A stretch of 64,000 nucleotides of DNA from Candidatus Omnitrophota bacterium (lineage in GTDB: Bacteria; Omnitrophota; Gorgyraeia; Gorgyraeales; Gorgyraeaceae): assembly GCA_043822665.1 (NCBI GenBank), contig JBDRBM010000024.1, positions 2,056 to 66,055 of the forward strand, written 5' to 3'. The position numbers and the translations under genes are program-made. A model generated the notes under the pieces. That model did no database searches. It had not been told where the DNA came from and was given only the letters and a program-made list of their open reading frames with translations. This document shows positions 3,422-64,000 of this stretch, one piece after another (position 1 is the first letter of the stretch; every line of letters starts with the position of its first letter).

Positions 3422-4153
3422 ATGCGTAAAAAAATATTGCGTAACAAGCCTATAATAGGTATTACTTGCGAGGTGAACAAACTTAAACCGTATTTTTCAC
3501 AGTTTGAGCTTTCATGTGACTATCGTTATGTACGCGCTATTCTAAGGGCAGGCGGTATACCTGTACTCATACCAATAAATCCTTACCGTAAGGAAGTTAC
3601 GAAATTATTACAGCATTTGGATGGTCTTGTTATAATCGGAGGCGCTGATGTACACCCGAATTTCTACGGCGAAAAATCAACGGAAAAGGTCAGGTCTGTT
3701 TATAGAGGGCGTATCTATTTTGAGACATGGTTATACAAAATGGCACAGAAGAAGAAAATTCCTGTTCTTGCGATATGCTACGGCATGCAGCTTTTAAATG
3801 TTATTTATGGAGGCACGCTGTATCAGGATATACGTTCAAATATAAAAGATTCAGGAAATCACTGCTCCAAAAAGTACCCTCAGCATGTTGTTAGAATACA
3901 GCCGGGTTCGCTTTGTCATAAAATCTTTAAAAGAAGTTCGTTTTTTGTCCATAGCGACCACCATCAGGCTGTTAAAACCTTGGGTCGCTCCCTGAAGATA
4001 AGCGCATTTTCAGATGACGGTATAATAGAGGCTATTGAGGGCCCATCGCATACCATAGCTGTACAGTGGCACCCTGAAAGACAGGCCAAAGACCCTGTCC
4101 AGAAACAGCTCTTCCGCTATTTTATCCGTTTGGCTAGGGGACTAAAGCCCTAA
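3422..4153 (+). CDS. Class-I glutamine amidotransferase-like gamma-glutamyl hydrolase (peptidase C26, PuuD-like)
   Basis: IGGADVHPNFYGE, AICYGMQLLNVIYGGTLYQDI (nucleophile Cys), HHQAV, IEA...QWHPE. I prefer ATG 3422 (MRKKIL) to the track start at 3389, which overlaps the upstream gene. Confidence 0.75.
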   Translation: MRKKILRNKPIIGITCEVNKLKPYFSQFELSCDYRYVRAILRAGGIPVLIPINPYRKEVTKLLQHLDGLVIIGGADVHPNFYGEKSTEKVRSVYRGRIYFETWLYKMAQKKKIPVLAICYGMQLLNVIYGGTLYQDIRSNIKDSGNHCSKKYPQHVVRIQPGSLCHKIFKRSSFFVHSDHHQAVKTLGRSLKISAFSDDGIIEAIEGPSHTIAVQWHPERQAKDPVQKQLFRYFIRLARGLKP

Positions 4154-5173: not shown

Positions 5174-6124
5174 ATGTATAGAGAAAAGATAAAGGTGTTG
5201 GACTGCACCATTCGTGACGGCGGCCTTATCAATAACCATGATTTTGATTTTCGCTTTGTACGAGAGGTGTATAAGGCTATATCAGAGTCCGGCGTGGATT
5301 ACATGGAAATTGGCTATAAGAATTCCAAAGAACTTTTTTCTCCGAAAGAATACGGGCAGTGGAAATTCTGTGACGATGATGAGATAAAAAAGATAATAGA
5401 GGGCATAGAATCCAGGACCAAGATTTCAGTCATGGTGGACGTGGGCCGTGTTAATATAGACGATGTTAAACCAAAGACGGAAAGCCCTGTGGACATGATA
5501 AGGACCGCTAGTTATGTCAAGGATATAGATAAAGCGATATTCATGGCAAACAATTTTGCAGACAAAGGCTACGAGACTACCATCAACATCATGGCGATTT
5601 CCAAAGACATGGGGCATGAACTGGATGAGGCCCTTCAGCAGATAGAAGAGGAAAGCAAAGTCAATGTTGTTTATATAGTGGATAGTTTTGGGGCATTGTA
5701 TCAGGAGCCTGTGGAATATCTTATAAAGCTCTGCAAAAGAATACTAAAGACAAAAGAAGTGGGTTTTCACGGACACAATAATCAACAGCTTGCTTTTAGC
5801 AACACAATCGAGGCTATTATACACGACGCCAATTATTTGGACGGGACCGTATATGGCATAGGCCGGGCAGCTGGAAATTGTCCGCTGGAATTATTGATAG
5901 GCTTCCTCAAAAATCCGAAATTTGATATCAGGCCCGTTCTAGACCTGATCTCAAAAGAATTTATTCCGCTTAGAGATAAGATAGAATGGGGTTATATAAT
6001 CCCTTACGCCATAGCAGGCATGATGAATGAACATCCTCGGGCAGCCATGGCCCTTCGCAAAGGCCATAAAAAAGAAGACTATAGAGATTTTTACGAGAGC
6101 ATCACAAACACAGGTTTGGATTAA
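5174..6124 (+). CDS. HMGL-like / DRE-TIM aldolase family protein
   Basis: N-terminal VLDCTIRDGG motif, then VDSFG and GFHGHNN, typical of the pyruvate-carboxyltransferase/HMGL-like TIM barrel. Confidence 0.65.
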   Translation: MYREKIKVLDCTIRDGGLINNHDFDFRFVREVYKAISESGVDYMEIGYKNSKELFSPKEYGQWKFCDDDEIKKIIEGIESRTKISVMVDVGRVNIDDVKPKTESPVDMIRTASYVKDIDKAIFMANNFADKGYETTINIMAISKDMGHELDEALQQIEEESKVNVVYIVDSFGALYQEPVEYLIKLCKRILKTKEVGFHGHNNQQLAFSNTIEAIIHDANYLDGTVYGIGRAAGNCPLELLIGFLKNPKFDIRPVLDLISKEFIPLRDKIEWGYIIPYAIAGMMNEHPRAAMALRKGHKKEDYRDFYESITNTGLD

Positions 6125-6132
6125 GCATCTAT

Positions 6133-6768
6133 ATGGATTTGCCCAGTTTTAATAAACTTCCCATAATGGGAATACTGAGGGGCGTAAATCCTAAAATAGT
6201 AGACCCCCTTATCGAGACGATCGTTTCGTCCGGACTCAAGACAATAGAATTCGCGTTAAATACGCCTGATGCAGTCCTGACTTTATCCCGCGCAGTAAAA
6301 ATATCTAAAAAACACCTTACAGTCGGAGCAGGTACTGTCCTTACAATGGATTCGCTTAAACTTGCGCTCGATAACGGGGCGAGGTTCATAGTTATGCCCA
6401 CTTTGGTCAAGGGCATTGTGGAACACTGTGTTAAAAAATCTATTCCTGTCTTTCCCGGGGCCTTGACACCGCAGGAGATACATAATGCATGGACCGCCGG
6501 GGCCGCAATGGTCAAGGTATTTCCTGCGAAATTTTTCGGGCCGGATTATTTTAAAGAGATAAAAGGCCCGTTCAGGGATATTAAACTCCTTGCCTGCGGA
6601 GGGGTTACTTCAGAAAATATTAAGTTATTTTTCAAATCAGGAGCGTCTGCAGTGGCATTTGGAGGGAGTATATTTAAAAAGGAATGGCTCGAGCGAAGAG
6701 AGTTTTCTCGCATAGAAGAGGCGATAAAAGAACTAATATCTAAAACCGGAGAGAAGAAAAATGGATAA
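6133..6768 (+). CDS. eda: KDPG / 4-hydroxy-2-oxoglutarate aldolase
   Basis: PIMGILRGV, VGAGTVL, PGALTPQEI, MVKVFPA (Schiff-base Lys region), LACGGV. Confidence 0.85.
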   Translation: MDLPSFNKLPIMGILRGVNPKIVDPLIETIVSSGLKTIEFALNTPDAVLTLSRAVKISKKHLTVGAGTVLTMDSLKLALDNGARFIVMPTLVKGIVEHCVKKSIPVFPGALTPQEIHNAWTAGAAMVKVFPAKFFGPDYFKEIKGPFRDIKLLACGGVTSENIKLFFKSGASAVAFGGSIFKKEWLERREFSRIEEAIKELISKTGEKKNG

Positions 6769-9639: not shown

Positions 9640-11535
9640 TTAGCCGCGCAGTTGTCTTTCCGCGTCAATTATATCCCGGTTTATAAGGTGGATGGTATTC
9701 CTAACCCTGTTTTTAAAATCTATCGACGCAGGCGTGTCAAGCATTTCACGCAGTATCTGGATAGCCATGCGAAAGGTCCTTATTATTTCTCCCTCATCAT
9801 CGTCTGTATATTGCAATAGCTTATCAAATTCTTCATTTCTTATCCAGGCCTCAATGCAAGTGGTAAGGTGGTAATAATAGACTTTGCTTAGGGCCTTTAC
9901 CCCGAACTTTTTTTCAATTTTATGTATACCGCTTAACATATTGTCAGTAATATCGTTTAATGACCTGGCAGGCCTGGAGAGTTTTGGCAATGTGCTGATC
10001 TTTCTGGGTTCAAAGACCAGCGCGGTTGAAAGTATTGCCAATTCTCTCTCAGAAAGTTTTTCAAGAAGGCCCTGTTCATAGAGCTCGGAGAGGGGAAGTT
10101 CATACCCATATATCTTTGCCGCGAAGCGCCCTTTTTCAGTAAGTTTATTTTTTCCGATGTAACCAAGTTCTTTCAGAAGTTTTACTTTATTATATAGAAG
10201 CTCAAGGGCCTTTTTTCTAAACTCTGCCCTTGCCTGAAAGTAGTGGAAGGAAAGAGGGTATATGTCATATAGTCTTTCATTGTATCTCTCGTAGAGGTTC
10301 AGTATGGTTGCGTAGGAGGCATTGAACCTGCTTTTTACCTTTTCAGGAGCGCCGTAAATGACCTTGTGGAGTTCAGGGAACGAAATCCAGCGAGGGTTGA
10401 CGCGGCTATACACGAAACCTTCTTTATCTATGCCGCGGCGGCCGGCCCTGCCAGCCATCTGAAAGAAGTCGCGTGTCTTGAGCGTGGCAAAGGATTTGCC
10501 GTAGAATTTCCTCAATTCGTCGAATATGACCGAACGCGCCGGCATATTTATGCCGAGGGCAAATGTCTCAGTGGTGAATATTATTTTTATGAGCCTGCTT
10601 GTGAATAGTCTCTCCACAACCTCTTTTAGAGTGGGGAGCATCCCCGCATGGTGATAGGCAACGCCTTTTTCGATTAAAGGCAGAATGAGCTGAGCGCTTT
10701 TATCGTTTACGAGTTCAAACCTCTCACAGAGTTCATTAAAGAGAGTTACTATCCTTGCCTTTTCCTGCTGGTTTAGAAAATCAAATCTCATCATTTCTCC
10801 TGCCAGATACTCAGATCTTTTTCTGCCAAAGACAAAATATATACAGGGAAGCTTGTCTGTTTCGGAAAGGTGCCTTATGAGCAAAGTGGGCTTGTTTGGT
10901 TTTCCGTAATAGCGGAAAGATTGTTTTTTATACGCTATTGAACAGACCTTCTGCAGGTTATCTATTATCTCACCATGGACTTGGTAAAAGAAATGTAGAG
11001 GCACAGGCCGCTTGTCCTCTTTTATAACTTTCAGGGGAAGCTTGTGTATTGACTGGAGCCATGAACATAGTTCGTCTATATTCGGTATCGTGGCGGAAAG
11101 GGCGAGCATTTTCATGTGGTGCGGCAGAAATATCAGAGACTCTTCCCATACACTGCCGCGCTCGTAGTCATCCAGGTAATGGATCTCGTCAAATATTATC
11201 CATGAATAGTTTTCAAGGTTTGACTTTTCTTCCAATACCTTATTGCGGAATATCTCCGTAGTCATTATTAAGACAGACGCGGAAGGATTTATGCTTACGT
11301 CACCGGTAAGTATGCCTATCCTGTCAGGGAATCCTTCCTGAAAATCGCGGAATTTCTGGTTTGAGAGCGCCTTTATGGGAGCGGTGTATATTACCTTTGT
11401 GCCTTTTTCCAGGCAGTCATTTATGACATATTCAGCTATCGCGGTCTTTCCCGCCCCGGTAGGCGCGGAAACCATTACAGAATATCCCGCGTTTATATAA
11501 TCGATAGCCTTTTTCTGAAATGCGTCATATATCAT
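9640..11535 (-). CDS. Superfamily-2 DEAD/DEAH-box helicase, Ski2/HelY-like
   Basis: SAPTGAGKT (motif I), FDEIHYLDD (motif II), LSATIPN (III), AYHHAGM, QMAGRAGRRG (VI). Confidence 0.85.
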   Translation of the reverse strand: MIYDAFQKKAIDYINAGYSVMVSAPTGAGKTAIAEYVINDCLEKGTKVIYTAPIKALSNQKFRDFQEGFPDRIGILTGDVSINPSASVLIMTTEIFRNKVLEEKSNLENYSWIIFDEIHYLDDYERGSVWEESLIFLPHHMKMLALSATIPNIDELCSWLQSIHKLPLKVIKEDKRPVPLHFFYQVHGEIIDNLQKVCSIAYKKQSFRYYGKPNKPTLLIRHLSETDKLPCIYFVFGRKRSEYLAGEMMRFDFLNQQEKARIVTLFNELCERFELVNDKSAQLILPLIEKGVAYHHAGMLPTLKEVVERLFTSRLIKIIFTTETFALGINMPARSVIFDELRKFYGKSFATLKTRDFFQMAGRAGRRGIDKEGFVYSRVNPRWISFPELHKVIYGAPEKVKSRFNASYATILNLYERYNERLYDIYPLSFHYFQARAEFRKKALELLYNKVKLLKELGYIGKNKLTEKGRFAAKIYGYELPLSELYEQGLLEKLSERELAILSTALVFEPRKISTLPKLSRPARSLNDITDNMLSGIHKIEKKFGVKALSKVYYYHLTTCIEAWIRNEEFDKLLQYTDDDEGEIIRTFRMAIQILREMLDTPASIDFKNRVRNTIHLINRDIIDAERQLRG

Positions 11536-50698: not shown

Positions 50699-50752
50699 CG
50701 TTTAGCGCCTGCCTACCGGCAGGCAGGGATAGCGTAGAGTGTATAGAAAAAT

Positions 50753-54340: not shown

Positions 54341-55138
54341 ATGAAATATCTTTTCAGCCATGCGGAAGAGCTTTTCTCAAAAATAAAAAATTCCCGCCAA
54401 GTATTTTTATTCTTAGATTATGACGGCACGCTTACACCTATTGTCTCAAGGCCGCAGCTGGCAAGGCTTTCACCCTCTCTAAAAAAAATAATCAAAAACC
54501 TGAACACTCATCCAAGGCTCAACATCGCTATTATCAGCGGACGGTCTTTACAAGACGTGAAAAAGATGGTTGGAATAAGGGGTCTTGTGTATGCTGGAAA
54601 TCATGGGCTGGAGATAGAGCAAGGGAGTCGAAGGATTAAAAAATCAACAGGACCTTCCTCAAGATCTTTGATTAAAAATATAACATTATATCTTAAGGCT
54701 GTGCTCGGAGGCATAAAAGGCGTAATAGTAGAAGACAAAGGCCCTACACTTAGTGTTCATTTCAGGATGGCAAAGCCTGAACACAGAGCCAAGATAAAGG
54801 CCATCTTCAATAAAATATTAAAACCGTATATAACGTCGCAAAGAATCAGGGTGACATCAGGCAAGATGGTCCTTGAAGCGAGGCCAGCTGTTGAATGGCA
54901 CAAGGGCAGGGCGGTCATGGCTATCCTGGGCAGGAATAAGGCCCTGCCTATTTATATAGGTGATGATTTAACAGACATTGACGCATTCCGCGCCATTAAA
55001 GGAAAAGGCGTATCAATATTTGTAGGAATGCCAAAGAAGAACATAAAGGCGGATTATTATCTGAAAGACACAAAAGAAGTAAAACTATTCCTAAAACAGC
55101 TCCTTTTTACAAGCAGCGCAAGGCGCTGCAAGATGTAG
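54341..55138 (+). CDS. otsB: Trehalose-6-phosphate phosphatase (HAD)
   Basis: LFLDYDGTLTPI, IISGRS, and IYIGDDLTDIDAF near the C-terminus. Confidence 0.85.
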   Translation: MKYLFSHAEELFSKIKNSRQVFLFLDYDGTLTPIVSRPQLARLSPSLKKIIKNLNTHPRLNIAIISGRSLQDVKKMVGIRGLVYAGNHGLEIEQGSRRIKKSTGPSSRSLIKNITLYLKAVLGGIKGVIVEDKGPTLSVHFRMAKPEHRAKIKAIFNKILKPYITSQRIRVTSGKMVLEARPAVEWHKGRAVMAILGRNKALPIYIGDDLTDIDAFRAIKGKGVSIFVGMPKKNIKADYYLKDTKEVKLFLKQLLFTSSARRCKM

Positions 55139-55156
55139 TCGCAGCATCTTATGCTG

Positions 55157-55244
55157 CTTAACTTGCAGTATAGGATTTTCCTTTTTGTAGGCCCACATTA
55201 GTAGGGGACCCTTAAGAGTCCCCTACTAATGTGGATAACTTGAC
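55157..55244. repeat. Composite family-C/B element after otsB (includes the palindrome 55193-55233)
   Basis: CTTAACTTGCAGTATAGGATTTTCCTTTTTGTAGG, then CCACATTAGTAGGGGACCCTTAAGAGTCCCCTACTAATGTGG, then ATAACTTGAC. It is preceded by the small hairpin GCAGCAT-CTT-ATGCTGC. Confidence 0.9.
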
Positions 55245-55277
55245 TTATTTCCGGATACATAATATTATATAGAAGTC

Positions 55278-55949
55278 ATGGAAGATACTGCTATAAGAAA
55301 TAATGAAAAGACATTCAGGTTTTGCACAAGGCTGCATCTCAGGGTGCTTACAGGCCTGAAGGCCTCTAATATAAGAGAACTCCTGAGGCTGATAAAAAAG
55401 GTGCCTGGCTCATCTATCTATTATCATACCCACAGATCTCTTCAGCAACACAGGTATCTATCTCCTGAGCCGCCAAATGATTTTGCTCACTGGATAAAAA
55501 ATGCCCTGAACGAAGAGGTGCTTGCGGAAAAGATCGCCTCAATAGATACGATACGGCACTCTTCTATCCGTTCTCTTAGAAATGAAATAGCAAGTACAAT
55601 AAGAAACTATATAAAGAAAAACCCGAAGGTAAAGCTCAGGTTTACAACAGGCAATAAGGTTTTTCATTTTATTAAAAGCGTAAGCCTAATAATGCCCCTG
55701 CCTTACGTGGCAGGGAATCTGAAGGAATTTGTAGACATATTGAAAAAGATTACCCCAGATTCAATATATTTTCACATGTTTGAGGCAAGGCTGAGGCTGG
55801 ACAGGGAGACTAATGACTTTTCTCATTGGCTTGAGACATCTTTATTAGAGGGTGAACTTGCCAAAAAGATAAAATCCTTGGATCCCTACACCTATACTAT
55901 GGAAGACTTGAAGAAAAAGGTTATTAAGATAGCGGAAGAAAGACTCTAG
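55278..55949 (+). CDS. Uncharacterised protein built from two ~100-aa tandem repeats (possibly DUF5752-type)
   Basis: The internal duplication is visible by eye: ...SSIYYHTH...PPNDFAHWIKNALNEEVLAEKIASID... versus ...DSIYFHMF...ETNDFSHWLETSLLEGELAKKIKSLD.... The family name is from memory and unverified. Confidence 0.45.
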   Translation: MEDTAIRNNEKTFRFCTRLHLRVLTGLKASNIRELLRLIKKVPGSSIYYHTHRSLQQHRYLSPEPPNDFAHWIKNALNEEVLAEKIASIDTIRHSSIRSLRNEIASTIRNYIKKNPKVKLRFTTGNKVFHFIKSVSLIMPLPYVAGNLKEFVDILKKITPDSIYFHMFEARLRLDRETNDFSHWLETSLLEGELAKKIKSLDPYTYTMEDLKKKVIKIAEERL

Positions 55950-55951
55950 AT

Positions 55952-57199
55952 ATGTCAACAATTAATAGATACGAAGAGATAGTAGGCAAGAATACCATTG
56001 ATGAATTGCGCATGCTCTCAGGATACCTGGAAGGCAAGGTGATTCAGCATATAAATTCCACTGCCATGGGGGGAGGCGTAGCTGAGATACTCCAGAGGAT
56101 CGTTCCCTTGATGCAGGAATTGGGCGTGAACGCGCAGTGGGATGTCATAAAAGGAAATAAGGAATTTTTTGAAGTCACAAAGGCTATGCATAATGCTCTT
56201 CACGGGAAAAAGGTAAGGATAACAGGTCGGATGTGGGAGATCTTTAGTGAGGTAAGCCAGGAGAATATAAAGAACATGAATCTCTACGGCGACATAATGT
56301 TTATCCATGACCCGCAGCCTATAGCGTTAATAAGGCTTAAAAATAGGATAAAAGGCTGCAAGTGGATATGGCGCTGTCATGTGGACGTGTCTAATCCGGA
56401 TAAAAATGTCTGGAATTTTCTTAAAGGTTTTGCAGATAGGTATGATGCCGCTATATTTTCAAGTCCACATTTTGCGCACAAGATGAAAACACGTCAAATC
56501 TTGATCGCACCATCCATAGACCCTTTCAGTGATAAAAATAGGGAACTGTCGCAAAAAGAGATAGATGCTGTATTGAATAAGTATAAGATAGACCCACAAG
56601 CTAAGCCAATAGTATGCCAGATATCAAGATATGACGCGTTAAAAGACCCTGTGGGCGTAATAAAGGCATATAAGCTTGTAAAGAAATACGTGGACTGCCA
56701 GCTTCTTCTTGTAGGAAACAGGGCCTCAGACGATCCTGAAACAGACAAGGTTTATAAAGAGGTCCTGGACACTGCAGGAGGGGACCCTGATATACACGCA
56801 TTACTCGTGGAGAACATCCCATGTGAGATCAATGCGTTTCAGCGGGTTTCAAGCGTAATAGTCCAGAAGTCGATAAGAGAAGGTTTTGCCCTTACTGTAT
56901 CAGAGGCGTTATGGAAAGGAAAGCCAGTTGTGGCATCTAGTGTAGGAGGGATACCTTTACAGATTACGCATAAACATAGCGGGCTTTTATGCCATAGCAT
57001 AGAGGGAGCGGCGTTTTATATAAAACAACTCCTGAACGCGCCCGAATACGCCCGTAAACTCGGCGAAAATGGCCGCGAACACATAAAACAGAATTTTCTC
57101 CTAACCCGCCATTTAAAAGAATACATGCTTTTATTTCTTTCGCTCTATCATAAAGGCAACGTGATTACGTTCGGCCCGCTTGACCCCGCACCTTTATGA
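55952..57199 (+). CDS. treT: GT4 glycosyltransferase, TreT-like trehalose synthase
   Basis: HINSTAMGGGVAEILQRIVPLMQELGVNAQWDVIKGNKEFFEVTKAMHNALHG closely follows the N-terminus of archaeal TreT as I recall it. C-terminal REGFALTVSEALWKGKPV (E-x7-E GT4 motif). Confidence 0.65.
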   Translation: MSTINRYEEIVGKNTIDELRMLSGYLEGKVIQHINSTAMGGGVAEILQRIVPLMQELGVNAQWDVIKGNKEFFEVTKAMHNALHGKKVRITGRMWEIFSEVSQENIKNMNLYGDIMFIHDPQPIALIRLKNRIKGCKWIWRCHVDVSNPDKNVWNFLKGFADRYDAAIFSSPHFAHKMKTRQILIAPSIDPFSDKNRELSQKEIDAVLNKYKIDPQAKPIVCQISRYDALKDPVGVIKAYKLVKKYVDCQLLLVGNRASDDPETDKVYKEVLDTAGGDPDIHALLVENIPCEINAFQRVSSVIVQKSIREGFALTVSEALWKGKPVVASSVGGIPLQITHKHSGLLCHSIEGAAFYIKQLLNAPEYARKLGENGREHIKQNFLLTRHLKEYMLLFLSLYHKGNVITFGPLDPAPL

Positions 57200-57250
57200 T
57201 TCTAAGGACTTCTTCGCGATAAAAAGGTGCGGGGTTGAATTAGATAGACC

Positions 57251-57279
57251 TTGACAGGGTGAATAAAAAGTCGTATAAT
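57251..57279 (+). promoter_or_regulatory. Consensus sigma70 promoter of the pyr operon
   Basis: TTGACA (57251-57256), a 17-nt spacer, TATAAT (57274-57279). Confidence 0.75.
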
Positions 57280-57302
57280 ATATACAGAAAATAGAACCTT
57301 TA

Positions 57303-57447
57303 AACCAGCCCTGAGAGGCTGGTAAGGGAGCATAAAGTGGAAACTATAAAGCTAAAAGTTGTCCCGAACCTTTTGTTCAATTCGATTGGTAAGAAATCAT
57401 CATTTCTTAAACATATTGAATATCAAAAAGGTGCGGGATTTTTTTTA
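57303..57447 (+). promoter_or_regulatory. PyrR-binding hairpin plus attenuator terminator (pyr leader)
   Basis: ACCAGCCCUGAGAGGCUGGUAAGGGAG (57303-57329) matches the PyrR binding-loop core ..GAGAGGCUG.(A/U)AAGG. Downstream, the stem TCCCGAACCTTTTG (57362-57375) pairs with CAAAAAGGTGCGGGA (57424-57438), followed by T8. Confidence 0.7.
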
Positions 57448-57467
57448 TCTAGCGCCAGGAGGTTAAG

Positions 57468-58013
57468 GTGTCAGTCAGAAGAGCTACTATATTAACAAAA
57501 GAAGAGATAAGCCGGGCGGTCACGAGGATAAGCCATGAAATACTCGAAAATAACAAAGGCGCCGGAGGCCTCGCTATAATTGGCATAAGGAGCCGGGGTT
57601 ATTTTCTTGCCGAGAGGATCGCGGCATTGATTAATCAAATAGACGGCGTAGAATTACCGGTAGGCGCGCTTGATATAACTTTATACAGGGATGATTTAAG
57701 CGTTATCTCCAAACAGCCAGTAGTACACAAAACAGACATAGATTTTGATATAGAGGATAAAAATGTAATCCTTGTGGATGATGTCTTGTGCACCGGAAGG
57801 ACTATACGCTGTGCCTTGGACGCGCTTATAGATTTTGGAAGGCCCAGGACAATACAGCTCGCTGTGCTTATAGACAGGGGCCACCGCGAACTTCCCATAA
57901 GGGCTGATTATGTGGGTAAAAACCTGCCTACATCTAAAATAGAGGCAGTGCAGGTTAGACTTGAAGAGATAGATGGTGAGGACAGCGTTTTTATAGAGAC
58001 AGAAAATGGTTAA
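57468..58013 (+). CDS. pyrR: Bifunctional pyr operon regulator / uracil phosphoribosyltransferase
   Basis: GTG start after [27 protein letters not shown] (PRPP motif), [20 protein letters not shown]. Confidence 0.9.
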
Positions 58014-58959
58014 ACCCGCCAAGAAAAAACCAAGATGGTTTCATAAGGATTTATTAGGCTTAGAGTATCTCTCCAAAGAAGATATAGAGCTGTTGCTTGA
58101 TACAGCAGATTCATTCATAGAGATATTAGAGAGGACCATCAAAAAAGTCCCTGCCCTGCGCGGTAAAACAGTAGTGAATCTATTCTACGAACCTTCCACA
58201 AGGACAAGGGTATCTTTTGAGATAGCCGCCAAGAGGCTGTCCGCGGATGTAATCAATATCGCGACCGAGACATCGAGCGTTAGGAAAGGCGAGACGCTCA
58301 ATGATACTGGCAAAAACATAGAGGCGCTGAAGGCAGATATTATAATAGTCAGGCACAATTGTTCTGGCGCCGCAACAATGCTTGCCAGGAATGTAAATAT
58401 CAGCGTTGTTAACGCGGGCGACGGGTGGCACGAACATCCTACGCAAGGCCTGCTGGACATCTTCACCTTAAAAAAGAAATTTGGACACATAGAAGGCCTT
58501 AATGTCACTATAGTAGGCGACATTGCGCATTCGAGGGTGGCGCGTTCCAATATATGGGGCCTGACTAAACTTGGAGCAAATATTACACTGTGCGCGCCTG
58601 GTATATTAATACCGCCAGGCATAGAAAAAACAGGCGTAAGCGTGACAAGTGATATAGATTCCGCGCTCTATGACGCTGACGCGGTAAATGTATTAAGGAT
58701 GCAGTTTGAACGCGACGAAAAAACAGCCTTCCCCAAACAGTTAGAATACTTTAAGAAATTCGGCATAACCGAAGAGCGGCTCAAAAAAGCCAGGAAGAAT
58801 ATTATAGTAATGCACCCTGGGCCTATAAATAGAGGCATTGAGATATCAAGCGCGGTAGCGGATGGCGCAAATTCTGTAATTTTGGAACAAGTTACAAATG
58901 GCATTGCGGTCAGGATGGCGGTTCTTTTCTGGCTGTCTCAAGTAAGGACGCGGTTATGA
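58006..58959 (+). CDS. pyrB: Aspartate carbamoyltransferase catalytic subunit
   Basis: [33 protein letters not shown]. Confidence 0.95.
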
Positions 58960-60248
58960 AGATATTAATTAAAAACGGAATTGTAGTGGACCCTTCTAAT
59001 AATATAAATGGCGTAAGAGATATTCTTGTAGCCGGCGGAAAGATTTCCAAGGTGGAGAAAGAGATTAAAGTAGACGCGGATACAGTAATAGACGCCAAAG
59101 ACAAAATAATAATGCCTGGTATTGTGGACATGCATGTGCATTTAAGAGAACCAGGAAGAGAGGATAAGGAAACAGTTGCGAGCGGCACAATAGCCGCGGC
59201 AAAAGGCGGGGTTACCACAGTCCTTGCCATGCCCAACACCATACCCGCGATCGATTGCGCTAAAAACGCGCGCATCCTCAGGGATATTATAAAAAGGACG
59301 GCAAATATAGATGTTTTGATTAACGGTACGATTACCATAGACAGGCTCGGCAAAGAATTATGTGACATAGAATCATTAAAGGAACAAGGTATAATTGCCA
59401 TTACTGATGACGGGTCTTCTGTAGAAGATAAAGGATTAATGCTCAAAGCGCTCGGAAACGCAAAGAAACATAAGGTCCTTGTAATATGCCACTGCGAAGA
59501 TAAGAACCTTTCTAATAATGGAGTAGTAAATCTTGGTTTTACCTCTACGAGGCTCGGCTTAAGAGGGGTTTCTAATGAATCAGAATATAAAAGGGTTGAG
59601 CGTGATATACAATTGGCGGAACGTTCAGGCGCGGCTATCCATATTGCCCATGTAAGTTGTAAAGAATCAGTAGAGATAATCAGAAAGGCAAAAAAAATCG
59701 GCATAAAAGTAACGGCAGAGACAGCCCCCCATTATTTTATTTTGGACGAAGAAGCAGTGCTTGATTATAACACCAACATGAAGATAAACCCGCCTTTAAG
59801 GCACAGAGAAGATGTTGAGGCCATAAAACAAGGGCTCAAGGATGGCACCATAGACGCGATAGCCTCTGACCACGCGCCTCATACAGAAAATGAAAAAGAG
59901 ATAGAGTTTGAATATGCGGAATCAGGTACTATTGGTTTGGAGACAGGGCTTTCAGCAGGCATTACAGAGTTGATAGATACAGGGTTATTGACATGGAGCG
60001 AGTTGGCAGAGAAGATGTGTCTTAACCCTGCTAAGATTCTCGGCGTAGATAAAGGCGCTTTAGGGGAAGGCCGGGAAGCGGATATTATTATTATCTCGCC
60101 GGAAAAGGAATGGGTAGTAAAAAAGAAAGATTTTGTGTCCAGATCAAAGAATTCCGTATTTCTGGGCAGGAAGCTTAAGGGCGCGGTAGAGCATACCATT
60201 TACAAGGGCCGTGTAATCTATAGCGCGCAAAAAGGAGTCACTGAGTGA
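58956..60248 (+). CDS. pyrC: Dihydroorotase
   Basis: PGIVDMHVHLREPG, GGVTT, IAHVS, SDHAPH. Confidence 0.95.
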   Translation: MKILIKNGIVVDPSNNINGVRDILVAGGKISKVEKEIKVDADTVIDAKDKIIMPGIVDMHVHLREPGREDKETVASGTIAAAKGGVTTVLAMPNTIPAIDCAKNARILRDIIKRTANIDVLINGTITIDRLGKELCDIESLKEQGIIAITDDGSSVEDKGLMLKALGNAKKHKVLVICHCEDKNLSNNGVVNLGFTSTRLGLRGVSNESEYKRVERDIQLAERSGAAIHIAHVSCKESVEIIRKAKKIGIKVTAETAPHYFILDEEAVLDYNTNMKINPPLRHREDVEAIKQGLKDGTIDAIASDHAPHTENEKEIEFEYAESGTIGLETGLSAGITELIDTGLLTWSELAEKMCLNPAKILGVDKGALGEGREADIIIISPEKEWVVKKKDFVSRSKNSVFLGRKLKGAVEHTIYKGRVIYSAQKGVTE

Positions 60249-61477
60249 GGTTCGTCGCTGATTTTCACATTCATTCTAAATACAGCCGCGCCACAAGTCC
60301 GCAAATGGAAGTCAAAACCTTATCCGAGTTCGCGAAATTAAAAGGGATATCGCTTCTTGGCACAGGAGATTTTACCCACCACCTCTGGCTTGAGGAATTA
60401 AAAGACGCGCTGAAAGACTCGGGCAGCGGCTTCTTCGAGTATAATAATGTAAATTTTATACTTACCGGAGAAATATCGAGTATTTATTCCAAGGCAGGCA
60501 AGGTCAGGAAGATTCACAATATAGTATTTGCCCCGAGCTTTGACATTGTCGATAAAATAAATTCCGCGCTTTCAGGGTATGGAAACCTCGCGTCTGACGG
60601 AAGGCCTATTATCGGCATAGACGCGAAAGACCTGGCAGAGGTCTTATTCGGAATCAGTAAGGAGATATTTCTGGTGCCTGGCCATATCTGGACACCGTGG
60701 TTTTCTCTCTTTGGTTCCAAATCAGGTTTTGATTCAATAGAGGAGTGTTTTGAAGAATACGCCAAAGACATCTATGCCCTGGAAACAGGGCTTTCATCAG
60801 ACCCTGGCATGAACTGGCGCTGGAGCAAGCTTGACAGGTTCAGCCTGATATCTAATTCAGATTCACACAGTCCGCAGAAAATAGGCAGAGAAGCGAATAT
60901 ATTTGATACAGAAATGAGTTATAAAGCCGTAATAGACGCCCTTAAGTCAAAAGACAATAAGCAATTTCTCTCTACAATTGAATTTTTTCCGGAAGAGGGT
61001 AAGTATCATTTTGACGGACACAGGAACTGTAAACTACGTTTAAGTCCGGTTGAGACAAAAAAGAATAAAAATATCTGTCCTGTCTGCGGAAAACCCATTA
61101 CAGTAGGCGTAATGAACAGGGTCAATGAACTTGCTGACAGGCCTGAGGGGTTTGAGCCTGAGAACAGGATCCCGTACCAGAGGATGATACCTCTGGCAGA
61201 GATAATCGCGGGTGTCCTGGGCGTGGGATATAGCTCCAAGGCAGTAGGGAGTGAGTATCGCGCTATAATACCTCGGTTCGGGACAGAACTTGAGGTCCTG
61301 ACAAAGATAAAAGACGAAGAACTTCTCAGTAAGGTACCGCGGAAGATAGCAAAGGCTATAATAAACGTGAGAAAAGGAAATGTAAATATATTACCCGGGT
61401 ATGATGGCGAATATGGTAAGATAGAGATATTAAAAAAAGAAGAAGCTGTTGGCGAAAAACAGATGGATCTATTTTGA
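60245..61477 (+). CDS. Endonuclease Q-like PHP-domain nuclease with a zinc ribbon
   Basis: ADFHIHSKYSRA, LLGTGDFTH, SNSDSHSP, GKYHFDGH, CPVCGKPITVGVMNRV, PLAEIIAGVLG, PGYDGEYGKI. These parallel Pyrococcus/Bacillus EndoQ blocks as I recall them. Confidence 0.75.
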   Translation: MRFVADFHIHSKYSRATSPQMEVKTLSEFAKLKGISLLGTGDFTHHLWLEELKDALKDSGSGFFEYNNVNFILTGEISSIYSKAGKVRKIHNIVFAPSFDIVDKINSALSGYGNLASDGRPIIGIDAKDLAEVLFGISKEIFLVPGHIWTPWFSLFGSKSGFDSIEECFEEYAKDIYALETGLSSDPGMNWRWSKLDRFSLISNSDSHSPQKIGREANIFDTEMSYKAVIDALKSKDNKQFLSTIEFFPEEGKYHFDGHRNCKLRLSPVETKKNKNICPVCGKPITVGVMNRVNELADRPEGFEPENRIPYQRMIPLAEIIAGVLGVGYSSKAVGSEYRAIIPRFGTELEVLTKIKDEELLSKVPRKIAKAIINVRKGNVNILPGYDGEYGKIEILKKEEAVGEKQMDLF

Positions 61478-61495
61478 GCCTTCAGCCGTCACAAT

Positions 61496-61535
61496 CCACA
61501 ATGTAGGTGACCCTTAAGGGTCACCTACATTGTGG
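61496..61535. repeat. Family-B palindrome, copy 4 (inside the pyr operon)
   Basis: CCACAATGTAGGTGACCCTTAAGGGTCACCTACATTGTGG, followed by ATAACTTTTGG and preceded by CACAATC-CACAATG. Confidence 0.9.
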
Positions 61536-61552
61536 ATAACTTTTGGACAAAA

Positions 61553-62374
61553 ATGAAAGATATTAAAGCAAATATATTATCCAATAAAGAAATTGCCCCG
61601 GGATATTTTAAGATGGCCCTGGACGCGCCCTATATAGCCAAAAACGCAAAGCCCGGGCAGTTTGTCCAGGTGAGATGCAGTGATGGATTTGACCCGCTTT
61701 TAAGGCGGCCGCTTAGTATACATCGGGTATCGGGTATCGGGGATCGGGTATCGGGTATCGATATTCTATACGAGGTGATTGGCAAGGGGACAGAAGTCTT
61801 GTCTAGAAAAAAAGCCGGCGAGACCATAGATATTTTAGGTCCATTAGGCAATGGATTTACTTTATCACCATCCACCATCCACCATCCACCATCCACCATA
61901 ATAATTGCCGGCGGCATTGGAGTCGCGCCGCTAATTTTTCTTGCAGAAAAATTAGCGGAAATCCAAAATCCAAAATCCAAAATCCAAAATATAGTTCTAT
62001 TAGGCGCCAGGACAAAGAGCCTGATTTTATGCGAAAAAGATTTCAAGAAAACAGGAGCCAAAGTTTATATTGCCACTGATGATGGAAGTAAAGGATATAA
62101 GGGCTTAGTAACGAAGTTATTTGAAAAAGTTTTACGATCCACGATCCACGATCCACGATCCACGGTATGCGCATGCGGGCCGCGGCCAATGCTCGAATCT
62201 ATTGCCAGGATGTGCAATGAAAAAGGTGTAGAATGTGAGATTTTGCTCGAAGAAAAAATGGCGTGTGGTGTCGGCGCATGTCTTGGATGCGCTGTAAAGG
62301 TCAGGGATAATGGGTATAAATTAGCCTGTAAAGACGGCCCAGTATTCAAGGCAAACACCATAATATGGCCTTAA
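61553..62374 (+). CDS. pyrK: Dihydroorotate dehydrogenase (class 1B) electron-transfer subunit
   Basis: GQFVQV, RRPLSI (FAD motif), GPLGNGF, AGGIGVAPL, ACGPRPM, C-terminal CGVGACLGCAV [2Fe-2S] motif. I prefer ATG 61553. The track GTG at 61532 lies inside the palindrome. Confidence 0.9.
   Translation: MKDIKANILSNKEIAPGYFKMALDAPYIAKNAKPGQFVQVRCSDGFDPLLRRPLSIHRVSGIGDRVSGIDILYEVIGKGTEVLSRKKAGETIDILGPLGNGFTLSPSTIHHPPSTIIIAGGIGVAPLIFLAEKLAEIQNPKSKIQNIVLLGARTKSLILCEKDFKKTGAKVYIATDDGSKGYKGLVTKLFEKVLRSTIHDPRSTVCACGPRPMLESIARMCNEKGVECEILLEEKMACGVGACLGCAVKVRDNGYKLACKDGPVFKANTIIWP
61722..61760 (+). repeat. Heptanucleotide tandem array ATCGGGT x5.5 inside pyrK
   Basis: atcgggt atcgggt atcgggg atcgggt atcgggt atcg. 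It encodes ...HRVSGIGDRVSGID..., directly after RRPLSI. Confidence 0.95.
61866..61900 (+). repeat. Heptanucleotide tandem array CACCATC x5 inside pyrK
   Basis: caccatc x4 plus caccata. It encodes SPSTIHHPPSTI, between GPLGNGF and AGGIGVAPL. Confidence 0.95.
61959..61990 (+). repeat. Heptanucleotide tandem array AAATCCA x4.5 inside pyrK
   Basis: aaatcca x4 plus aaat. It encodes EIQNPKSKIQNI. Confidence 0.95.
62134..62165 (+). repeat. Heptanucleotide tandem array ACGATCC x4.5 inside pyrK
   Basis: acgatcc x4 plus acgg. It encodes LRSTIHDPRSTV, directly before CACGPRPM. Confidence 0.95.
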
Positions 62375-62412
62375 CTTGACAATTCTTACATGCCACATTT
62401 AGTCAAGTTAAG
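62370..62412. repeat. Family-A 43-nt palindromic repeat, copy 4
   Basis: CTTAACTTGACAATTCTTACATGCCACATTTAGTCAAGTTAAG. The pyrK stop TAA (62372-62374) lies in its left TTAA. Confidence 0.9.
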
Positions 62413-62432
62413 GTGAAAGGAGCGCGAACAGA

Positions 62433-63314
62433 TTGGCAGTTCTTATAGGTAAGATTAAATTAAAAAACCCAGTGATGGTTGCTTCAGGTACCTTTGGATA
62501 CGCAAAAGAATTTGAAGGCCTGGTTGACCTGAAGAAACTCGGGGCGATTATTACAAAGACCATTACTTTAAACCCAAGAGAAGGCAATCCAATGCCCAGG
62601 ATATGCGAGACAGCATCCGGTATGCTCAATGCAATAGGCCTGCAAAACGAGGGCATAGATAATTTTATTAAAGAAAAGATGCCCTATCTTTCAAAGATAG
62701 GAGTACCTCTTATAGTAAGTATATCAGGAGATAGTATTAAGGAGTTTTGCGAACTATCAAAACGGCTTGATAAAGAAAAAGATGTGGCAGGGATAGAGCT
62801 GAATATATCGTGCCCTAATATCAGAAGACAGAAGACAGAGGACAGAAGACAGAGGTTGATTTCTCAAGATAAAGATGCAACGTATGAAGTGACAAAGAGT
62901 GTTAGAAAAGCAACGGATAAGATGCTCATTACAAAACTCTCGCCAAATGTAACTGATATTGTGGAGATTGCAAAATCCGCATGCAATGGAGGCGCAGACG
63001 CAGTGAGTTTGGTAAACACCTTTTTGGGTATGGCAATAGATATTGAGACTGGAAGGCCAAAGCTCGGCAATATTACGGGTGGTTTGAGCGGCCCTTGCAT
63101 TAAGCCGATAGCATTGCGCATGGTCTGGGAGGTTGCAAGAAATATTAAAAGGCCTATAATAGGAATAGGCGGTATAATGACAGCAGAAGATGCCATTGAA
63201 TTTTTGCTTGCAGGCGCACAGGCAGTGCAGGTAGGCACAGCGAATTTTATCGAACCCGGAACCTGCGAGAAAATAATAAAAGGGATAGAGCTATGGAAAA
63301 AGAAAAGATCATAG
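62433..63314 (+). CDS. pyrD: Dihydroorotate dehydrogenase (class 1B) catalytic subunit
   Basis: TTG start. NPVMVASGTFG, ITKTIT, NAIGLQN, GIELNISCPN (catalytic Cys), KLSPNVTDI, NTF, GGLSGP, GIGGI. Confidence 0.9.
   Translation: MAVLIGKIKLKNPVMVASGTFGYAKEFEGLVDLKKLGAIITKTITLNPREGNPMPRICETASGMLNAIGLQNEGIDNFIKEKMPYLSKIGVPLIVSISGDSIKEFCELSKRLDKEKDVAGIELNISCPNIRRQKTEDRRQRLISQDKDATYEVTKSVRKATDKMLITKLSPNVTDIVEIAKSACNGGADAVSLVNTFLGMAIDIETGRPKLGNITGGLSGPCIKPIALRMVWEVARNIKRPIIGIGGIMTAEDAIEFLLAGAQAVQVGTANFIEPGTCEKIIKGIELWKKKRS
62822..62856 (+). repeat. Heptanucleotide tandem array CAGAAGA x5 inside pyrD
   Basis: cagaaga cagaaga cagagga cagaaga cagaggt. It encodes RRQKTEDRRQR, immediately after NISCPNI. 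Confidence 0.95.
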
Positions 63315-63988
63315 TAGCCCTGGATGTTCACACTATCAAAGAGGAAGAACGCCTTCTTGATATCTTGAGCCCTCATGTAAGGATTTTTAAGGTCGGGATG
63401 GAACTTTTTTATTCCTGTGGGCCAAAGGCAATAGATATTGTTAAAAAATACGACAGAGAGATCTTTCTTGATCTAAAGTTTCACGATATACCTAATACGG
63501 TTCGCGCATCTGGCAGGATAGCTGCGCGATTAGGCGTCTTGATGTTCAATGTCCATGCATCTGGTGGAAGCGATATGATGCGCTCTGCCCTGGAAGGCGC
63601 GGAAGAAGAAAGCAGGATATTGGGGATAGATAGGCCTAGGATCTTAGGCGTGACAGTGCTTACGAGCATAGATACTGACGGCCTGAAGCAAATCGGAATA
63701 GATAGATCTTCAGAGGCTCAAGTGCTGAACCTGGCTTTACTGGCTAAAAAATCAGGCCTGGATGGTGTTGTGTCCTCTCCGCAGGAAATAGAGATGCTTA
63801 GGAATAAAATGGGCAGGGATTTTTTGATAGTTACGCCAGGCATAAGGCCTGAAGCGGATGACAAAGGAGACCAGAAAAGGATAGCTACTCCAAAACAGGC
63901 TATTGAATCAGGCGCGGATTATATTGTGATAGGCCGGCCAATTATAAAGGCAAAGGATCCGGTCAAGGCTATAAAGAGTATAATATGA
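63293..63988 (+). CDS. pyrF: Orotidine-5'-phosphate decarboxylase
   Basis: IVALDV, FKVG, FLDLKFHDIPNT, VTVLTS, PGIR, VIGRPI. Confidence 0.95.
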   Translation: MEKEKIIVALDVHTIKEEERLLDILSPHVRIFKVGMELFYSCGPKAIDIVKKYDREIFLDLKFHDIPNTVRASGRIAARLGVLMFNVHASGGSDMMRSALEGAEEESRILGIDRPRILGVTVLTSIDTDGLKQIGIDRSSEAQVLNLALLAKKSGLDGVVSSPQEIEMLRNKMGRDFLIVTPGIRPEADDKGDQKRIATPKQAIESGADYIVIGRPIIKAKDPVKAIKSII

Positions 63989-64000
63989 ATAAAGAAGAGG

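Follow-up and report, generated by a model that had tools for sequence, protein, structure and literature searches.

The DNA considered here is a 64,000-nt stretch from a Candidatus Omnitrophota bacterium (assembly GCA_043822665.1, contig JBDRBM010000024.1, positions 2,056 to 66,055 of the forward strand), hereafter the window. It poses the question of why a gene for pyrimidine synthesis should be crowded with tandem repeats of a unit length not divisible by three. Housekeeping genes are expected to purge coding repeats of this kind, and most of the examples known in bacteria belong to contingency genes that govern surface structures. The gene is pyrK, encoding the electron-transfer subunit of class 1B dihydroorotate dehydrogenase (DHOD-B), and it houses four arrays of different heptanucleotides; a fifth lies in pyrD, which encodes the catalytic subunit. 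Comparison with other genomes reveals that such arrays are a shared trait of DHOD-B in Omnitrophota, Margulisiibacteriota and Methylomirabilota (NC10), and are not peculiar to the window genome. On balance we lean towards the view that they are translated heptanucleotide microsatellites forming variable surface loops of DHOD-B ("microsatellite loops").

The initial annotation of the window had described the four arrays in pyrK. Tandem Repeats Finder (TRF) and a single intact open reading frame (ORF) of 273 amino acids (61553..62374; all array, gene and operon coordinates given here for the window are on the forward strand) establish that they are real, and the ORF translation agrees with the array peptides and adjoining PyrK motifs that it quoted. 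The first array, S1 (61722..61760), comprises 5.6 copies of ATCGGGT at 93% matches, with one unit reading ATCGGGG. It encodes RVSGIGDRVSGI and lengthens the beta-hairpin after RRPLSIH (strands 51-62 and 65-74 of the AlphaFold2 model). The other three are perfect by TRF. S2 (61866..61899) has 4.9 copies of CACCATC, encodes SPSTIHHPPSTI and occupies the linker between the FAD and NAD domains, ahead of AGGIGVAPL; S3 (61959..61990), with 4.6 copies of AAATCCA, encodes EIQNPKSKIQN in a helix-to-strand loop ahead of VLLGA; and S4 (62134..62164), with 4.4 copies of ACGATCC, encodes RSTIHDPRST in another helix-to-strand loop, ahead of ACGP. The pyrK arrays measure 31-39 nt. What had been overlooked is the fifth array, in pyrD (62822..62853; CAGAAGA x4.6, 92% matches), which encodes RRQKTEDRRQR in the active-site loop directly after the catalytic SCPNI motif. 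The same PyrD loop also bears arrays in loci L003, L005, L006 and L035. Beyond these five arrays, no exact tandem run of at least three copies with a period of 2-15 nt is present in the 64-kb window. Estimated from composition, a run of ~24 consecutive lag-7 matches is expected ~4e-10 times per window, and an origin of the arrays by chance is excluded.

FNR-like FAD- and NAD-binding domains, a C-terminal [2Fe-2S] cysteine motif (CGxGxCxxC, kept in the PyrK alignment A1) and an adjoining class-1B pyrD downstream identify the array-bearing gene as pyrK. Its product contains the Pfam domains PF10418 (DHODB_Fe-S_bind) and PF00175 (NAD_binding_1), matches PDB 5KSW_B/1EP3_B at E ~1e-34 and is 100% identical to P0001, a protein of an Omnitrophota metagenome-assembled genome (MAG) at NCBI. 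NCBIfam names it the DHOD electron-transfer subunit with equivalog scores under the cutoffs (206 bits vs 314 and 219), which is consistent with insertions and divergence. The pyrD gene (62433..63314) matches Pfam DHO_dh at 1e-75 and NCBIfam NF005574 at 392 bits, over the cutoff.

When 34 Omnitrophota PyrKs (57-73% identical) were aligned, 7-residue-periodic peptides were found at four common positions: S1 after RRPxSIH, S2 between GPLGNGF and AGGIG, S3 between FLAExL and vLIGA, and S4 before IYACGP. The unit differs among the aligned proteins, and certain sequences lack an insert at a given site. The window loops at S1-S4 have 13, 16, 16 and 16 residues, compared with 6, 9, 8-9 and 9 in the shortest array-free loops, and the PyrD loop has 12 residues compared with 5 in the shortest Omnitrophota orthologues. 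Each array adds ~7 amino acids, that is 21 nt or three units, over the shortest array-free loop; relative to the solved Lactococcus lactis PyrK, the window loops are longer by 3, 2, 5 and 5 residues (S1-S4). In an AlphaFold model (predicted local distance difference test score 75), all four PyrK arrays fall in connectors between secondary-structure elements, namely a hairpin tip, the interdomain linker and two helix-to-strand loops. The idea that these are tolerated loop insertions, put forward in the initial annotation, holds in that the arrays are in frame and translated; the genome-wide spread of a heptamer that went with it is not supported, as the units differ and the arrays are confined to DHOD-B.

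Among the 120 closest homologues, identical-residue runs at lag 7 numbered 78, compared with 0-13 at other lags, save for 68 at lag 11 that we tentatively attribute to a conserved motif; 59 of the 120 proteins have at least one lag-7 run. Bigger in-frame inserts occur at the same PyrK loops, often within an array, in P0008, P0015, P0018, P0026, P0032, P0060, P0083 and P0104 of alignment A1. These inserts (peptides such as PRLRSGQA, LDFARDRQGS / PFDFTQGRQG and PSEVEG) look like translated GC-rich palindromic repeat elements. Omnitrophota PyrD is itself unusual at the loop that carries its arrays: it is without the canonical class-1B active-site loop SCPNVKKGGVAFGTDP that other phyla retain and has the form SCPNI-x(5 to >30)-LI(A/S)QD, a subfamily diverged at a catalytically important loop.

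A DNA survey covered 1.16 Mb, at ~20 kb per genome, made up of the window and 80 pyrK loci, of which ~50 belong to Omnitrophota and the remainder to other phyla. In this sample, 50 of the 56 arrays with at least 3.5 copies and at least 85% matches have period 7. Arrays in the Omnitrophota loci were then assigned to gene families by tblastn. pyrK contains 34 arrays in 33.6 kb (1.01/kb) and pyrD contains five in 34 kb (0.147/kb), every one of the latter in the single loop after SCPNI. The pyrR-like, pyrB, pyrC, endoQ-like, pyrF and pyrE genes contain none in 145 kb (density 0), and everything else contains seven in 462 kb (0.015/kb). Among the arrays listed outside pyrK, those that lie outside the pyr genes are intergenic or at gene 5' ends, and several loci, of the Omnitrophota clade and others, have extra arrays just upstream of pyrK, downstream of it or at the pyrK-pyrD junction. 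Where pyrD is 2 kb away from pyrK, it still has its loop array. The hotspot is the two DHOD-B subunits, neither the operon nor the region: with 0 arrays in 145 kb of other pyr genes, an operon-wide or regional mutational hotspot is rejected for Omnitrophota. As a possible extra target, carB was dismissed as well, having two weak arrays only (3.1 and 3.6 copies) that in our judgement are probably near background.

In a neighbour-joining tree, array-bearing PyrKs are spread throughout the Omnitrophota clade and its Margulisiibacteriota sister. The ~30 Desulfobacterota and other PyrKs of this tree have no arrays, except L048, a Methylomirabilota contig that branches away from Omnitrophota. Recent horizontal transfer was rejected for L048 on account of that branching and of the GC content of its pyrK, which at 66% equals that of its flanks. 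Equivalent arrays are present in >40 independent assemblies from different studies, including contigs of 0.99 Mb and 5.6 Mb. No second DHOD was found in the sampled loci, within the ~20 kb surveyed per genome.

The link between heptamer arrays and DHOD-B or the pyr operon recurs in this unrelated GC-rich lineage. With the L048 PyrK as query, 56 of 120 Methylomirabilota homologues contain a lag-7 peptide, nearly always at S3, and the homologues have 60 lag-7 runs in total vs 0-23 at other lags. Four NC10 genomes bear perfect S3 arrays, built from TGCGGAA (x4.9) in L097, GAAATTC (x4.4) in L098 and AAATTCG (x4.7) in L048. In L096, a locus of 67% GC, the S3 array (1228-1259) consists of 4.6 copies of AAATCCA and is identical at 32/32 nt to positions 61959-61990 of the window, with unrelated flanks. 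IQNPKSKIQN, from the S3 peptide of the window, occurs in two NC10 homologues. The initial annotation had reasoned that the same peptides in unrelated phyla would undermine its reading; the peptide does recur in Methylomirabilota, but the L096 copy is the product of an identical heptamer array, which speaks for a conserved or recurrent feature and not for a spurious one. Two near-identical NC10 proteins, P0207 and P0214, have S3 units that differ at three positions when back-translated, indicating that the array was replaced and did not drift.

In NC10 the arrays also extend beyond the two DHOD-B genes. An inverted pair, (AATGCGG)n...(ATTCCGC)n, occupies the pyrK-pyrD spacer of L048 (4373-4451) and that of L097 (10814-10892); L097 has a further in-frame inverted array pair in carA (5853-5941) and an array in the pyrB-pyrC spacer (3823-3872). 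In the ~22 kb of non-pyr sequence of L097 and L098, no period-7 array of at least three copies was detected. Inverted array pairs of this type would fold into hairpins, and a similar inverted pair lies inside pyrK at S3 of locus L007.

Judging by their reading frames, the arrays inside genes are translated, and they are constrained accordingly in composition. All 81 pyrK ORFs that we examined are in frame and intact, in a sample that favours intact genes. Consensus units of coding arrays are stop-free in all three phases in 44 of 51 cases on the sense strand and in 30 of 51 on the antisense strand, with 61% expected. The AGGGTNA unit of L084 is variable at precisely the point where perfect repetition would create an in-frame TGA. 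The A+C content of the units on the sense strand is 64%, vs 50% expected for stop-free heptamers, and this richness may reflect the need for hydrophilic peptides in three phases. Coding arrays have 3.0-5.6 copies (median 4.4) and non-coding arrays up to 6.9.

Between closely related strains the arrays vary by three units or by presence and absence. In clusters at 90% protein identity, one cluster showed a difference of +7 amino acids at S2, another an S1 array that is present or absent, and the third constant length; this last, cluster 10, comprises 14 full-length variants with identical copy number. Between L087 and L088 the difference is exactly 21 nt, corresponding to three ACGA(G/A)CG units beside an older decayed array. 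Presence or absence likewise distinguishes L084 from L085, and the difference between L084 and L085/L086 looks like a recombination tract bearing the array. In L081, an N-run (~2720) in the pyrK scaffold links two strain variants, only one of which has the S1 array, and L082 also has an N-run within pyrK (~590-620). Array polymorphism is thus present in situ; it appears to interrupt assemblies at this gene and may hide variant alleles in public MAGs. Point-mutated, imperfect arrays persist.

The search for frameshifted alleles was negative. P0130, P0122 and P0160 were considered as candidates and discarded, being N-gap scaffolds or contig ends. A metagenome scan for the S2 array of cluster 10, using exact flanks and a gap of 15-45 nt, returned two contigs only, both of reference length, and had no power. 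An exact look-up of six variant products (-3 to +3 units) predicted for a well-sampled population returned none in a collection of 15 billion proteins. Overall, no out-of-frame allele was seen among the 81 pyrK genes or in the look-ups, all of which had low power or biased sampling.

The relationships among units bear on where the arrays come from. Within-genome unit similarity is no higher than that between genomes (permutation p = 0.88), and units at the same site are more alike, above all at S3 (mean circular distance 2.1 vs 3.3), where related units such as AAATCCG and AAATTCG occur elsewhere. Units that are related by site and not by genome favour a local origin over a mobile heptamer. 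The initial annotation had noted an ATCCA core shared by three arrays; it is present in the window and particular to it, and neither this core nor a genome-specific unit holds as a rule. Its comparison with the genome-wide spreading of short tandemly repeated repetitive (STRR) sequences is not supported, given the same permutation result, units that differ from array to array (the five units of the window are all different, in a survey of ~20 kb per genome) and the confinement of the arrays to the DHOD-B genes. There is likewise no shared consensus unit at dispersed sites. Certain units do recur: CTATCCG is found at S2 and S3 of L031, at S2 of L007 and at S4 of L009, and the S3 unit of L097 equals an arm of the nearby spacer array. 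These cases suggest occasional ectopic conversion or template switching. The spacer units of L048 also match units back-translated from the S3 peptides of other NC10 genomes. Outside pyrK and pyrD, exact 7-nt doublets occur at 1.5-1.9x the shuffled expectation, and no clear doublet excess is seen there for other periods that are not multiples of three; the 7-nt excess agrees with the published over-representation of heptamer simple sequence repeats (SSRs).

A palindromic mini-element, CCTGCC(TG)-loop-(CA)GGCAGG (CCTGCCTG-loop-CAGGCAGG), recurs in several Omnitrophota genomes, including the window, where it lies at 50708-50727 (intergenic) and at 55697-55714 (in the ORF 55278..55949). In L005, two 21-nt copies (10401-10421 and 10602-10622) are inserted in frame within two different pyrK arrays, and L053 has an 18-nt copy (6593-6610) in the S2 region of pyrK. 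In Nostoc, heptamer repeats with nested small dispersed repeats (SDR) of 21-27 nt are said to have been described by Elhai and colleagues in 2008; the likeness concerns the mini-elements, not the arrays.

Full-text literature searches found no prior description of such arrays in pyrK, in line with the initial annotation, although close analogues exist. In NeuO of Escherichia coli K1, the heptanucleotide AAGACTC is repeated in the 5' coding sequence, three units encode the heptad RLKTQDS in a disordered segment, and copy number changes by slipped-strand mispairing (PMC3046976). DHOD-B shares with NeuO a tandem heptanucleotide in a coding sequence, three units of which make seven amino acids, so that only frame-keeping copy numbers give full-length protein. 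NeuO, however, is a prophage gene with one N-terminal tract of 2-93 copies, high-frequency ON/OFF switching and a surface phenotype, whereas pyrK has as many as four tracts, short ones of 3-5.6 copies, that sit within the protein in loops of a core metabolic enzyme, at positions shared across phyla and with no OFF allele seen. A second analogue is pflu0185 of Pseudomonas fluorescens, where duplication of GGTGCCC in the coding sequence, seeded by GGTG...GGTG microhomology, causes a frameshift; the frame is restored by contraction or further expansion, and stringent alternating selection drove the number of copies up (10.1101/2024.05.01.592015). The case directly models the birth of local, non-mobile coding heptamer arrays, though it comes from the laboratory and concerns one site, close to the N-terminus, under a known regime of alternating selection; no such regime is known for DHOD-B. 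The peptide RLKAQGS (unit back-translated as GCTCAAG) occurs in the S1 arrays of P0002, P0004, P0009, P0041 and P0065 and its unit matches the NeuO unit at 6/7 positions in one rotation, a likeness probably due to coincidence, or to both having converged on a unit that is hydrophilic and free of stops.

Period 7 is favoured among longer bacterial SSRs, for which a polymerase-footprint explanation has been proposed (PMC4692102; PMC4679880, where Mrazek et al. 2007 is cited for the general excess of heptamers in prokaryotes), and in-gene repeats have been reported to prefer units that are multiples of three. STRR sequences, the GGGAATC repeats of Xanthomonas and the TAACTGA repeats of Beggiatoa are mostly intergenic, with one or few units genome-wide; the arrays studied here differ in having diverse units, in being coding and in being confined to one enzyme. 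The GGGACCG elements of Geobacter metallireducens have one consensus unit at 49 dispersed loci, are read as regulatory RNA and are not tied to an enzyme or to orthologous loops, resembling our arrays only in having ~4 copies and possibly lying inside genes. The ingredients are known: a heptamer bias of SSRs, coding heptanucleotide variable-number tandem repeats, and four-copy heptamer elements in Geobacter genes. What is new is that the arrays are confined to a single housekeeping enzyme, that they occupy orthologous loops in different phyla and that an array is conserved irrespective of its sequence.

To account for these observations, we propose that the arrays are created from a heptamer by slipped-strand mispairing or by template switching on the spot, and would then pass three filters: only three-unit changes would keep the reading frame, the unit would have to be without stop codons in all three phases, and the resulting three-frame peptide would have to suit a solvent-exposed loop. 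Together, the three filters could produce the narrow range of copy numbers (3.0-5.6) and the A+C-rich units. The loci would be long-lived as loci while their sequences turn over, by three-unit steps, by presence and absence, by adoption of a new unit and by nesting of mini-palindromes, and copy number would be stable within one population. Because reaching ~4.5 copies from a single copy needs +1/+2 frameshifts, new arrays would pass through frameshifted +1/+2 unit intermediates, and DHOD-B would have to be transiently dispensable. Several observations weigh against this scheme. Tolerance of loops alone cannot explain a >50-fold excess in pyrK over neighbours in the same operon, the same gene pair has been struck separately in a phylum of 66% GC, and none of the out-of-frame intermediates that ~4.5 copies require has been seen. 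A function or a targeted process is further hinted at by the identical AT-rich 32-nt array in two phyla, by the S3 array in 4/4 NC10 genomes with lag-7 peptides in 56/120 NC10 homologues, and by the arrays, often inverted pairs, in pyr-operon spacers and carA. We accordingly entertain as a minority possibility that the DHOD-B of three phyla bears a conserved device that is independent of unit sequence, either a frameshift switch or an array-writing process targeted to the pyr operon; in either form, such a device would explain why perfect ~4.5-copy arrays are kept at orthologous codon positions while their sequence is swapped between near-identical strains.

On the switch reading, the arrays would be retained for their proneness to slippage. 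Gain or loss of one unit would turn PyrK/PyrD off or on, toggling de novo pyrimidine synthesis or NAD-linked DHOD-B activity within a population, and ~4.5 copies would be the shortest in-frame state still able to switch. A unit length that is not a multiple of three, the perfection of many arrays and a gene specificity that demands a gene-specific cause all fit, as does the conservation of array-ness through changes of unit sequence, even between P0207 and P0214. Precedents exist in NeuO, which is ON only at multiples of three (PMC3046976), and in the pflu0185 frameshift switch, which evolved de novo under alternating selection (10.1101/2024.05.01.592015). Yet 0 of 81 pyrK genes is out of frame, with the sampling bias towards intact genes already mentioned, the apparent fragments are N-gap scaffolds or contig ends, and the n+1, n-1, n+2 and n-2 products predicted for a well-sampled population are absent from the 15-billion-protein collection. 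Moreover, copy number is the same in the 14 variants of that population, 3-5.6 copies are few compared with known switches (NeuO, 2-93), four tracts per gene are atypical, and imperfect, point-mutated arrays persist. We regard a contingency switch as unlikely, if still a serious contender. More doubtful, but likewise a contender, is some pyr-operon-specific process or function. The arrays might be cis-acting DNA or RNA regulatory elements, or by-products of mutagenesis in pyrimidine starvation, when a derepressed operon would be transcribed and replicated at scarce C and U(T) nucleotides, leading to stalling and template switching. NC10 arrays in the pyrB-pyrC and pyrK-pyrD spacers and in carA but not in the ~22 kb of non-pyr flank would be accommodated, as would the arrays just upstream or downstream of pyrK in several loci and an operon that appears to be regulated by PyrR; the Geobacter elements, too, were deemed regulatory by annotators, including those inside genes (PMC2700814). 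In contrast, the pyrR-like, pyrB, pyrC, endoQ, pyrF and pyrE genes share the operon without having arrays (145 kb), pyrD keeps its loop array 2 kb from pyrK, the units are too diverse for a single binding factor, the arrays are constrained as coding sequence, and Rfam matches nothing in the pyrK-pyrD region but a microRNA, at chance level, on the endoQ-pyrK hairpin described below. PyrR binding to the arrays was set aside, as only the ATCCA-type units of the window resemble part of the motif, and units elsewhere do not.

Selection for diversity at surface or active-site loops of DHOD-B, for instance in escape from an inhibitor and with slippage as the quickest loop maker, would be compatible with the repeated turnover at the same loops, with whole-unit replacement between near-identical proteins and with an Omnitrophota PyrD that has lost SCPNVKKGGVAFGTDP and whose loops range from 5 to >30 residues. 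This is improbable in our judgement: no antagonist suggests itself, populations are stable in both copy number and sequence, and the spacer arrays would be left unexplained. As little credit can be given to the insertion in these genes of a heptamer element that is mobile or dispersed, whether STRR-like or a small transposed cassette. The recurrence of CTATCCG in L031, L007 and L009, the units that L097 and L048 share with spacer arrays or with S3 of other NC10 genomes, and the 21-nt palindromic mini-elements nested in arrays might be read in this way, but units are related by site and not by genome (p = 0.88), no shared flanking sequence or target duplication accompanies them, and the difference between L087 and L088 is a clean three-unit expansion of a resident unit. 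That the arrays are artefacts of assembly or sequencing, as their coincidence with scaffold gaps in two MAG scaffolds might suggest, can practically be dismissed, given intact ORFs, lengths (31-39 nt) below those of reads and typical k-mers, and equivalent arrays in >40 independent assemblies and Mb-scale contigs.

In at least three phyla, whose members are mostly uncultivated, the arrays are a stable architectural trait of a core metabolic enzyme, at orthologous loop positions. Should they be neutral, they offer a clean natural system in which to study how microsatellites are born, step by three units, become homogenised and are replaced while a reading-frame filter acts on them, and they would show that slippage products can serve as material for enzyme loops. 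Should they be switches or the products of targeting, they would represent a new way to control or diversify pyrimidine metabolism. In practice, the arrays break MAG scaffolds, lower the scores of PyrK family models and could pass for errors.

The part of the operon upstream of pyrK (57293..61477), as delineated by Pfam, Rfam and PDB matches, is array-free. It begins with a match to the PyrR site RF00515 (57293-57448; 44.9 bits, under the gathering score of 54, E = 9e-4), just upstream of the first gene, a pyrR-like phosphoribosyltransferase gene (57468-58013), and the pyr operon appears on this basis to be PyrR-regulated. pyrB (58006-58959) and pyrC (58956-60248), both assigned like the first gene by Pfam, are followed, between pyrC and pyrK, by an unannotated homologue of endoQ (60245-61477) that matches the Pyrococcus furiosus EndoQ structure 5ZB8 at E = 3e-61 and TIGR00375 below the cutoff. 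Most Omnitrophota loci have an EndoQ/MJ0043_C-like gene (34 copies in a total of 43 loci), the presence of which is not correlated with that of arrays, and a uracil/hypoxanthine-DNA nuclease that is predicted from operon position to be co-transcribed with pyrimidine synthesis genes is of interest in itself. As a cis-acting cause of the arrays an adjacent endoQ was rejected, because pyrK genes without this adjacency have 22 arrays in 25 genes, vs 6 in 12 with it.

In the gap between the endoQ stop and the pyrK start, positions 61492-61539 form a perfect 22-bp stem with a 4-nt loop, one arm of which includes the heptamer doublet CACAATC CACAATG. The predicted RNA fold of 61470-61556 has an energy of -39.6 kcal/mol (z = -8.1), and the hairpin may act within the operon in processing, in transcript stability or in attenuation. 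No structured RNA was found over the arrays with Rfam in 55000-64000 at E up to 1; the only matches in this interval were the upstream PyrR site and the chance-level microRNA match on the hairpin. Elsewhere in the window, between two minus-strand genes, the intergenic segment 25826-25918 contains an imperfect palindrome of inverted heptamer doublets (AATGACA AATGTCA ... TTTGTCA TTTGTCA), in which AAATCCA and its complement are also present, and which resembles the inverted heptamer arrays of the NC10 pyr spacers.

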